Part shown: piece by piece, positions 24,921 through 26,644 of the stretch | Position numbering within the stretch: position 1 is the first letter of the stretch | Layout of the letters: the number at the start of each line of letters is the position of its first letter | Virus record (IMG/VR): IMGVR_UViG_2548876701_000024 | Reading direction: 5' to 3' (one strand) | DNA from: a virus | Taxonomy: Duplodnaviria > Heunggongvirae > Uroviricota > Caudoviricetes | Length of the DNA: 36,646 bases | Made by a program: the position numbers and the translations under genes | The notes under the pieces: model-generated | The model's database searches: none | Told to the model about the DNA's origin: nothing | What the model saw: only the letters and a program-made list of their open reading frames with translations

Positions 24921-25188
24921 TATTATCGAAAATAAATATTCGCCACAGAATCATCAAAACGTAACTGTGGCGGATATTTAAAATTTTACTCACTGACTAA
25001 CCAGAACCCCGTTTCTTCAAGCATTTCCTGGACAGTACTGCTTATCTGTTCATTCTCATGCTTGTGGACGTTGGTGTTGAGCACTGATTGTCTCCCTGAC
25101 ATCAGTATCGGGAAAAACCAACGAGCCAACTCGCTTAACTCGTCCGGAGGGAAGTAGTTGATATAGACAAGCATATATTCATATTTTT

Positions 25189-26322
25189 TTAAATTTTATG
25201 CAATCCGGCTGATGATTTATTATTTATTTTTTTGATAAACGGTAATTCTATAAAATGATAAGTGAAAGTAGATAACAGGCAAATGCCAAAGAAGGTCATA
25301 ACAAGTATCGAAAGTAATAAGGGGCCAGTAGTCATCATTTTTGCGGATTTCAGATAGTTATAGACTGGGAAAAGTACTAATCCCTGTGTGAGATACAAAC
25401 TGTAGCTAATCGCGCCTAATCTTTTGGCTGCTTTGGTTGTTAGTGCTCCAAAGAGTTCGGCTCCAGATATGATGCAAAAGAAAATAACAGCAAGGAAAGC
25501 AGTCTCCGGTGGGCTATATAATGTAGGGGCTGACAGAAAGGTTAGCAGTATGGCAGCGATCAAAATATAATTTGCATTAGTCTTGGACAGGATAATTCTT
25601 TCTTTCAACTCCCTGCAGAGCATCCCCGCAAAAAAATATGACCAAAGATATGCAGTATTCGTAAAGGACGGCAATAAATAAAACGAAAATGCAAAAAGAA
25701 TAATGGTCAGTTCCATTGGTTTTTTATTGAGAATAAATAGCAATGGAAGAGAAAAATAAAATATCCACTCCCATTTCAATGTCCACGTAACTCCGGCTAA
25801 CACAATGAATGGAGTCTGAAAAGTCGTTACTGGTGGTTTATTATCCCACAAGCTACCATCAAACCAGGACAGTATATTGGATATAGTGGTTAAAGTTAAT
25901 GTGGTTTTTTCCGTGAAAATGAAAAGTATAGAAATACCCATGAATGAACAAAAGAAAGCTAATGGGGCAATTCTAAGGAATCTTTTTTGATATAGGGTTA
26001 CCCAATCAATATTTTTCTTGTCCCTAATCTTCCCCCAAAATAAGTAGGCTGTTGTCATGAAGAATAATGCCACACCATATTTTCCCATAGTTAACAGCCA
26101 CTGGGATATTGGGGTCCATTCCCCGGTTTTAAAATATGAATAGGAGCAATCCATATGATGAAGTATTACGAATGATGCAAGATAAAAACGCATTCCATCA
26201 AGACCGTTAGCACGATTTTGCTGAATGTCATCATCTAAAAATTTAAATATTGGTAAGCCGAAGGCGACTAATGCACCAATTATACAGAAAAATGCTAAAA
26301 TAAATGAAAATGGTAGATTCAT
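25189..26322 (-). CDS. Acyltransferase-3 family integral membrane protein (OafA/Oac-like, probable O-antigen or surface polysaccharide acetylase)
   Basis: Multi-TM 377-aa protein with N-terminal LDGMRFYLASFVILHH motif resembling the AT3 signature; strongly AT-rich; opposite strand to flanking tail genes. Confidence 0.7.
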   Translation of the reverse strand: MNLPFSFILAFFCIIGALVAFGLPIFKFLDDDIQQNRANGLDGMRFYLASFVILHHMDCSYSYFKTGEWTPISQWLLTMGKYGVALFFMTTAYLFWGKIRDKKNIDWVTLYQKRFLRIAPLAFFCSFMGISILFIFTEKTTLTLTTISNILSWFDGSLWDNKPPVTTFQTPFIVLAGVTWTLKWEWIFYFSLPLLFILNKKPMELTIILFAFSFYLLPSFTNTAYLWSYFFAGMLCRELKERIILSKTNANYILIAAILLTFLSAPTLYSPPETAFLAVIFFCIISGAELFGALTTKAAKRLGAISYSLYLTQGLVLFPVYNYLKSAKMMTTGPLLLSILVMTFFGICLLSTFTYHFIELPFIKKINNKSSAGLHKI

Positions 26323-26551
26323 ATAAGTAACGCTCTTCTTTTTTATGTTAAAGATAACCAGTTATTATCATAAATGTGCACGGAATTACTCTAGAATATC
26401 AGAATGTAACTTCATAGCAAGCAACCGCGCTTTGTCATACAACTAAGGCGACATTGAATCTCGTTTATGTATGTTTTTTTCCAATTATATTAACCCAGCC
26501 TTTCAACGAAGTTAAATGCACTGCTAACCATCACTTTTCATAAATCTCAGT

Positions 26552-26569
26552 TGTGCCATTTTCCATACA
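26552..26569. promoter_or_regulatory. Ogr/Delta-type late promoter box TGTGCCATTTTCCATACA, PF
   Basis: TGT-N12-ACA upstream of FI. Confidence 0.6.
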
Positions 26570-26644
26570 AATCCCATCGCGTGCACCCTGCACTTATCAA
26601 CCAGAACATAGGCAGACCCCCTCTACAACCGGAGAGACTGCCTT

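Follow-up and report, generated by a model that had tools for sequence, protein, structure and literature searches.

What is an A+T-rich acyltransferase gene, oriented against its neighbors, doing between the tail genes of a P2-like prophage? The gene lies in a 36,646-nucleotide stretch of caudoviral DNA (IMG/VR record IMGVR_UViG_2548876701_000024; hereafter the window), a P2-like prophage near-identical to an element integrated beside ssrA in E. coli DEC9B. It occupies positions within 24921-26644, which is exactly the gap between the stop codon of the tail-fiber chaperone gene G and the start codon (ATG) of FI, the tail sheath gene, and in DEC9B its PGAP label is only 'acyltransferase family protein'. 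We find that it belongs to the acyltransferase-3 (AT3) family. The reading that we favor, and hold to be probable though by no means secure, is that it encodes an O-antigen O-acetyltransferase expressed in the lysogen, a lysogenic-conversion enzyme that would act, most likely, on the O26 O-antigen. This reading draws on the domain, fold, and conserved catalytic residues of the protein, on purifying selection, on the position and boundaries of the gene, and on hosts that are all O26. A prophage-borne AT3-only O-acyltransferase for lysogenic conversion is a known kind of gene, and the novelty is lowered because neaT, another AT3 gene already described at the slot, is a direct precedent; what adds interest is the strict O26 restriction, the linkage to a fiber-tip allele, and the recurrent capture of AT3 genes at the slot.

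A conserved AT3-only acyltransferase

An earlier note on this DNA, made from its letters alone, had placed an A+T-rich AT3 gene of opposite orientation where P2 carries Z/fun, and had proposed for it an Oac-type role in acetylating O-antigen, as a conversion or surface-modification gene. Family, strand, composition, and position all held. The protein scores 93.4 bits, the cutoff being 31, against the Pfam profile PF01757 (Acyl_transf_3; E 1.9e-26, residues 40-350, profile positions 3-324 of 326), the gene lies on the minus strand at 35.9% G+C, and the P2 record has fun(Z), which is non-essential, acts in lysogenic conversion, and blocks T5, in the same slot and likewise on the strand opposite to the late genes. 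Record and size tell the two genes apart: in P2, fun(Z) is recorded over ~1.6 kb, and the AT3 gene is 1.13 kb long. As for the Oac-type proposal, it is now better supported, through a relative in OacB, the critical residues, the genomic neighbors, and carriers that are exclusively O26.

The protein also matches phrog_3333, annotated 'O-acetyltransferase' (3.9e-43), and is AT3-only, with a single Pfam domain over its 377 residues and no SGNH domain. NCBIfam gave no match for it or for ORF62, a 62-residue open reading frame (ORF) lying 3' of it; a PDB sequence search with the AT3 protein gave none, and its Foldseek comparison with the PDB was too weak to stand alone. Its predicted fold is that of a multi-helix transmembrane acyltransferase (TmAT) and matches solved transmembrane acyltransferases.

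The residues expected of an active enzyme are in place. R45 and H56 in transmembrane helix 1 (TMH1), with ten residues between them, form the R/K-X10-H motif, and R114-F-L-R117 forms the RXXR motif; the H56 position is invariant also across Oac, OacB, and NeaT. The equivalents in OafA, R14/H25 and R69/R72, are essential, and the His is invariant in 31 characterized enzymes (PMC7448272); the RXXR pair corresponds to R73/R76 in Oac and R116/R119 in OacB. Alanine substitution identified R47, H58, W71, F98, R116, R119, and S146 as essential in OacB (PMC8952252). Their counterparts here are R45, H56, W69, F95, R114, R117, and T145: six of the seven are identical, and these six are invariant in an alignment of 84 family members, while the seventh is a Ser-to-Thr exchange whose S146/T145 pair sits in a less reliably aligned loop.

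Might the gene nonetheless be inert, a foreign passenger trapped in a recombination-prone slot and unexpressed or non-functional? Its composition is strongly atypical, its promoter and ribosome-binding-site (RBS) matches are weak, it is rare (5 of 5,426 genomes), and a degraded DinI-like fragment adjoins it. Set against this, the gene is under purifying selection: dN/dS is 0.14 when it is compared with a 98.7%-identical allele and 0.13 when it is compared with an 82%-identical one, values obtained at protein divergences of 1% and 18%. No copy seen has a broken reading frame, the catalytic residues are all kept, 160 bp of conserved upstream DNA accompany the gene, and the gene stays intact while adjoining prophage genes decay. 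We regard inert hitch-hiking as highly improbable.

Carriage confined to serogroup O26

If the enzyme modifies an O-antigen, which one? Among 5,426 complete E. coli genomes, the flanking sheath sequence is present in ~1,000 and the AT3 cargo in five, all of serogroup O26. The O26-specific wzx/wzy genes occur in 109 genomes (2.0%), a list that includes the carriers F2_407_2_2, 7_33_46A, and FDN-24, and none of the ~5,300 non-O26 genomes carries the AT3 gene. DEC9B is O26:H11 of sequence type (ST) 29 (PMC5592225), FDN-9 and FDN-24 are O26:H32, ST10, phylogroup A (PMC12054123), and strain 34870, a carrier with a draft genome, is an stx2a O26:H11 isolate from hemolytic uremic syndrome (HUS) that belongs to the ST29 'new French clone'. 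O26 is the serogroup of all typeable carriers, and their chromosomal backgrounds are of at least two unrelated kinds (ST29 and ST10); with two independent lineages, the chance expectation for this pattern lies between ~0.02 (the second given the first) and 4e-4. O26-only carriage matches the prediction for an O-antigen-specific modifying enzyme. The O26 gene cluster makes dTDP-L-rhamnose (dTDP-L-Rha) and UDP-L-N-acetylfucosamine (UDP-L-FucNAc) and contains no acetyltransferase.

The gene does not travel alone. The same five genomes, and no others, carry at 80% coverage or more a particular allele of the tail-fiber H tip and chaperone G (23958-24920, where G+C drops to 45-50%), whereas the fiber shaft up to ~23957 is common to ~1,100 genomes without this tip. 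Could the selected role of the enzyme then be to mask a receptor, by modifying the structure bound by its own or related fiber tips, so that superinfecting phages are excluded and released virions are spared adsorption to lysed cells? Such masking is compatible with O-antigen acetylation and concerns why the gene is kept. It would fit the inheritance of tip, chaperone, and AT3 gene as one block with five of five carriers O26, the constant proximity of family AT3 genes to receptor-binding genes, and the capture of at least five divergent AT3 lineages in the slot beside fiber genes. There is also a precedent, as Oac of Shigella phage Sf6 confers immunity to Sf6 superinfection (PMC9558356). Phage exclusion by our AT3 gene would be plausible.

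Several observations pull the other way. PADLOC-DB 2.0 returned no defense-model match for the AT3 protein or ORF62, and homologues of ~59% identity sit in other phage types without the fiber tip. The tip and chaperone share 66-73% DNA identity with side-fiber modules of phages whose listed host is K-12 or Y. pestis; both hosts are devoid of O-antigen, so these distant relatives give no sign of an O-antigen-specific fiber. With few lineages, the linkage between fiber and AT3 gene may be mere clonality. A general AT3-fiber linkage across phage types was considered and rejected, only a generic C-terminal chaperone segment being common to them. Masking as the reason for which the gene is kept is possible, though we lean against it.

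The history of the element in FDN-24, a chicken isolate, also speaks to who benefits. There the P2-like element (NZ_CP158147.1, 1309345-1323245; locus L002) is a decayed and rearranged remnant by ybjL, a different chromosomal site, with a frameshifted tube gene, an inverted capsid module, and the distal tail genes, from tape measure to D, missing between the tube gene and ogr. Its AT3 gene is intact and 98.7% identical to ours, which suggests that the host has domesticated it. Because the gene is kept in a dead prophage remnant, the benefit would be to the host rather than to the phage, a further point against receptor masking.

Relation to characterized enzymes and their settings

Among characterized proteins, the closest relative, and the best match in deposited phages, is OacB of the serotype-converting Shigella phage Sf101, which aligns end to end at 31% identity over 372 residues (E 5e-44). 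OacB, like OacC, 3/4-O-acetylates rhamnose III of the S. flexneri O-antigen. Both OacB and our protein are AT3-only, of similar length (390 and 377 residues) and with an extra N-terminal helix; both are prophage-borne and convergent to a receptor-binding gene, in hosts whose O-antigen has L-rhamnose. Their carriers differ, OacB belonging to a P22-like podovirus at the tailspike-int site and ours to a P2-type myovirus at the G-FI slot in an E. coli O26 host, and the Gly of motif 2 is Ala in the window protein.

Sf6 Oac, which brings about serotype conversion by 2-O-acetylation of rhamnose I, is likewise AT3-only, prophage-borne, and convergent to the tailspike, and the His, FF, and RxxR positions are common to both; its oac gene has its own annotated promoter and terminator. 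It is more remote (~25% identity over about half the length) and, at 333 residues, lacks the extra N-terminal helix. OafA and OafB of Salmonella share R/K-X10-H and RXXR in their AT3 domain, but they are AT3-SGNH proteins; the window protein has no fused SGNH domain, 11th C-terminal helix, or linker, and motifs specific to AT3-SGNH enzymes do not apply to it.

Nearer relatives, ~55-60% identical, are all A+T-rich (34-39% G+C) and lie at prophage edges by receptor-binding genes, a layout shared with oac of Sf6 and oacB of Sf101. In E. coli one converges on a P22-type tailspike, and in Enterobacter another converges on a fiber chaperone and fiber; a third adjoins a Mu-type baseplate and fiber module, and a fourth is close to a lambda-type J gene, together with umuDC. 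A 33%-identical relative sits inside a Wzx/Wzy-type polysaccharide cluster of Klebsiella aerogenes, a capsule-type cluster. Given these receptor-binding-gene neighbors and the member in a Wzx/Wzy cluster, this AT3 branch would act on the repeat units of surface polysaccharides. As a side observation, the 59%-identical allele by the P22-type tailspike (L003, 8001-9149) has no intact copy in the complete E. coli genomes; in seven of these, all that is left of it is the final ~200 nt, unannotated.

How does the gene relate to neaT, its precedent at the slot? NeaT (c0970) of the CFT073 prophage phi-b0847 is a PF01757 protein whose gene, of 29.8% G+C, runs against its neighbors in the G-FI slot, the 'moron position 2' of Wiles et al. 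(2013, PMC3573123). Slot, orientation, Pfam family, and unameliorated A+T-richness are shared, and the backbone to the right is near-identical from the pF dyad onward; NeaT has 343 residues, and its gene lies directly against G with no ORF62. That the window gene is an allele or orthologue of neaT was rejected, the similarity being marginal (27% over 82 residues, E 2e-4), and our gene therefore represents an independent capture of another AT3 lineage. The two are comparably rare, with neaT DNA in 9 of the 5,426 complete genomes and the window gene in 5.

The precedent nevertheless suggests a different function, in which the enzyme would be a NeaT-like factor for host fitness or virulence that acylates some other envelope glycan, such as enterobacterial common antigen (ECA), colanic acid or capsule, osmoregulated periplasmic glucans (OPG), or peptidoglycan, and so alters aggregation or immune recognition and not the O-antigen. 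NeaT itself aids bloodstream fitness with no defined lipopolysaccharide (LPS) phenotype, AT3-only proteins have many substrates, one relative lies in the capsule-type cluster, and the hosts include HUS-associated O26:H11. Yet the window protein is essentially unrelated to NeaT while it aligns end to end with OacB, an O-antigen enzyme, and restriction to a single serogroup in two unrelated backgrounds is unexpected for targets found across E. coli, as ECA, OPG, and peptidoglycan are. We consider this alternative unlikely.

A model of lysogenic conversion

The reading as an O-antigen O-acetyltransferase can be cast as a sequence of steps. The G-FI slot would have received an A+T-rich cassette by horizontal transfer, complete with upstream sequence of its own. 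By analogy with neaT and Sf6 oac, the AT3 gene would be transcribed in the lysogen from its own promoter, apart from the flanking Ogr-dependent late operons. Its product, an inner-membrane enzyme of the AT3-only Oac/OacB type, would take acetyl from cytoplasmic acetyl-CoA and pass it through the AT3 pore, with R45...H56 in TMH1 and R114-x-x-R117, onto a sugar hydroxyl on a surface polysaccharide in the periplasm. That polysaccharide is most likely the O26 O-antigen, a repeat of rhamnose, FucNAc, and N-acetylglucosamine (Rha-FucNAc-GlcNAc) whose own cluster provides no acetyltransferase. The outcome would be an altered O-epitope, which might change how phages adsorb and how antibodies recognize it.

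A number of points weigh against this scheme. To our knowledge, the published structure of the O26 O-unit has no O-acetyl group. The O26 restriction comes from about two independent lineages and is inseparable from the linked fiber-tip allele, so it could mirror the host range of the phage and not the substrate of the enzyme. OacB, at 31% identity, is a distant relative and no orthologue. The promoter matches upstream of the gene are weak. In the FFxISG motif of TMH2, which here reads FFMTTA, F87 and F88 are invariant, but Ala92 replaces the Gly, reported as invariant in characterized enzymes, throughout the close family; the corresponding G46A change leaves OafA fully active, whereas G53 is critical in Oac (PMC7448272). 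ECA, OPG, capsules, and further glycans are also substrates of AT3-only enzymes (PMC9558356), and neaT, the one AT3 gene of this slot to have been studied by experiment, is needed for full fitness in bloodstream infection, with virulence and aggregation phenotypes and an undefined substrate (PMC3573123).

If the O26 O-antigen is acetylated, a subset of O26 strains, including the stx2-positive ST29 strain 34870, would display a changed O-epitope. This could affect serotyping, O-antigen diagnostics or vaccines, and which hosts therapeutic or typing phages can infect. P2-type myoviruses would then join the serotype-converting phages of E. coli.

Boundaries of the cargo and expression signals

Where does the cargo end and the phage backbone begin? 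The positions of all features are collected in Table 1. Aligned with the P2-like prophage of CFT073, the window is near-identical from ~26547 rightward and unrelated leftward. The earlier note had described the 322 bp upstream of the AT3 gene as one A+T-rich region that also contains the late-promoter box of FI. The box is there, its center ~84 nt before the FI ATG compared with 83 nt for the annotated pF activator site in P2. The description of the region held for one part, 26323 to ~26546, which is A+T-rich cargo (33% G+C), and failed for the other, 26547-26644, which is P2 backbone of 51% G+C; because identity with CFT073 starts at ~26547, the region is composite. For comparison, FI has 56.5% G+C, the slot flanks ~55%, and the whole window 50.7%. 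Two features of the interval, ORF62 and a hairpin beside G, were absent from that note.

A narrower unit can be discerned within the cargo. An 82%-identical AT3 allele lies outside any P2 context, with a GNAT-like gene upstream, and its DNA homology to the window (81.5% identity) is limited to the AT3 gene and ~160 bp upstream. The mobile unit would thus be the gene with this piece of upstream DNA, a self-contained cassette.

Table 1. Features in and around the G-FI slot of the window (positions in nucleotides)
Feature	Position	Strand	Basis or remark
Candidate Ogr-dependent late-promoter dyads, TGT-N12-ACA, P/O divergent pair	14326-14343, 14384-14401		Expected P2 late-promoter positions (terminase/scaffold)
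Candidate Ogr-dependent late-promoter dyad, TGT-N12-ACA, V	20292-20309		Expected P2 late-promoter position (before V)
Tail-fiber H C-terminal tip with chaperone G, variable allele inherited with the AT3 cargo	23958-24920	+	Genome distribution
G, tail-fiber assembly/chaperone	24324-24920	+	Caudo_TAP, 5.5e-27
Inverted repeat, 16-bp stem, candidate bidirectional intrinsic terminator where the G and AT3/ORF62 transcripts converge	24933-24980	both	Folding energy
ORF62, truncated DinI/MsgA-like, 62 aa, 3' of the AT3 gene	24986-25174	-	phrog_36550, 5.5e-42
Putative self-contained mobile cassette, AT3 gene with ~160 bp of its own upstream DNA	25179-26482	-	Homology span of the 82% allele
AT3-only integral-membrane O-acyltransferase gene	25189-26322	-	377 aa, PF01757
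A7/A8 homopolymer (gene sense), length strain-variable	25220-25226	-	1-base indel relative to DEC9B
Best candidate sigma-70 promoter for the AT3 gene	26393-26420	-	TTGCTA, 16-nt spacer, TG-n-TATTCT
P2-backbone pF late-promoter region and FI 5' leader, right edge of the cargo	26547-26644	+	CFT073 alignment
TGT-N12-ACA dyad, candidate Ogr-type late activator site for pF (F)	26552-26569	+	Position match to P2 pF
FI, tail sheath, right flank	26645-27817	+	Phage_sheath_1, Phage_sheath_1C, Gp18_domIII_N

A consensus scan upstream of the AT3 gene found no convincing minus-strand promoter, and a relaxed scan found at most 8 of 12 consensus matches. The best candidate reaches these 8 of 12, has the TG of an extended -10 element, and is partly kept in the 82% allele. 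Rfam gave no match within 24800-26800. The TGT-N12-ACA dyad occurs in the window at chance frequency (10 found, 9.3 expected); four of the ten stand at positions expected for P2 late promoters.

Between the converging G and AT3/ORF62 transcripts, the inverted repeat beside G folds with -21.9 kcal/mol on the plus strand (z -7.15) and -19.3 kcal/mol on the minus strand (z -5.55) relative to shuffled sequence, and a U-rich tract follows the stem in both directions. It is plausibly a bidirectional terminator, one overlooked by a consensus terminator scan because its loop is large. A second terminator-like hairpin, inside ORF62 (25120-25144), was rejected since shuffled sequence folds just as well (z -0.58).

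Is expression switched? Phase variation of the gtr type, through Dam and OxyR, was rejected because the upstream region has no GATC; the sole GATC in 24921-26650 is at 25558, within the coding sequence. The strain-variable A7/A8 tract alters only the last ~12 residues, giving a product of 368 residues at three loci (L001, L017, L024) and of 377 at six others. Since the change is confined to the C-terminal tail, which is unconserved and of low predicted local distance difference test (pLDDT) score, the tract does not seem to be an on/off switch.

Recurrent capture of AT3 genes at the slot

Is the presence of two unrelated AT3 genes at one slot a coincidence? We surveyed 80 P2-like sheath loci in species-representative genomes, 63 of them with at least 3 kb of upstream sequence. 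At three of these loci, two from Buttiauxella (L037, L046) and one from Citrobacter (L047), a further AT3 gene of 38-39% G+C directly precedes the sheath gene, at ~4700-5830 in each locus; a Pfam scan of the 61 extractable slot-proximal ORFs recovered the same three. The gene in L046 is on the strand of the sheath gene, unlike all the others. The five slot-resident AT3 proteins are mutually at most 31% identical, which indicates that the slot has captured AT3 genes repeatedly and independently. This recurrence suggests that surface-glycan acylation is a regular cargo function of P2-like phages. Two published surveys of P2 defense hotspots, which concern the old/tin locus, do not contain the terms 'acyltransferase', 'acetyltransferase', or 'O-antigen'.

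Taken to its furthest, the evidence might describe an O26-specific serotype-converting module, in which fiber tip, chaperone, and O-acetyltransferase move as one block, create an unrecognized O26 sub-serotype in HUS-associated ST29, and alter phage susceptibility. The G-FI slot of P2 would then be a hotspot of surface-glycan modification, with at least five unrelated AT3 lineages, and a source of phage resistance invisible to defense catalogues. We offer this as a speculative extension that may well fail.

Other occupants of the slot and neighboring genes

Besides AT3 genes, the G-FI slots of the survey (loci L028-L107) hold resolvase or invertase genes (5 loci), Gp49-like (4) and RelB (1) toxin-antitoxin genes, proteins with a Tad2-like (anti-Thoeris) domain (2), and a hexapeptide-repeat acetyltransferase (1). 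At the other variable locus of P2, the old/tin hotspot between the replication gene A and the portal gene Q (~10714-11146 in the window), the sole genes are a hypothetical one of 62 aa and a DinI-like one of 77 aa, and PGAP annotates no defense system there.

What, finally, is ORF62? Its C-terminal half matches DinI of phiKO2 and a 'virulence protein' of a Citrobacter phage, and it shows no similarity to the other DinI-like gene of the prophage. PGAP leaves it unannotated in DEC9B; public sources name it 'DinI family protein, partial', and its exact sequence is found on 241 contigs. A Shine-Dalgarno sequence was sought for ORF62 and none was found, and it lies outside the AT3 mobile cassette; on these two grounds it is best read as a remnant, which it probably is. 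The order of the locus is constant: sheath, AT3, ORF62, G.

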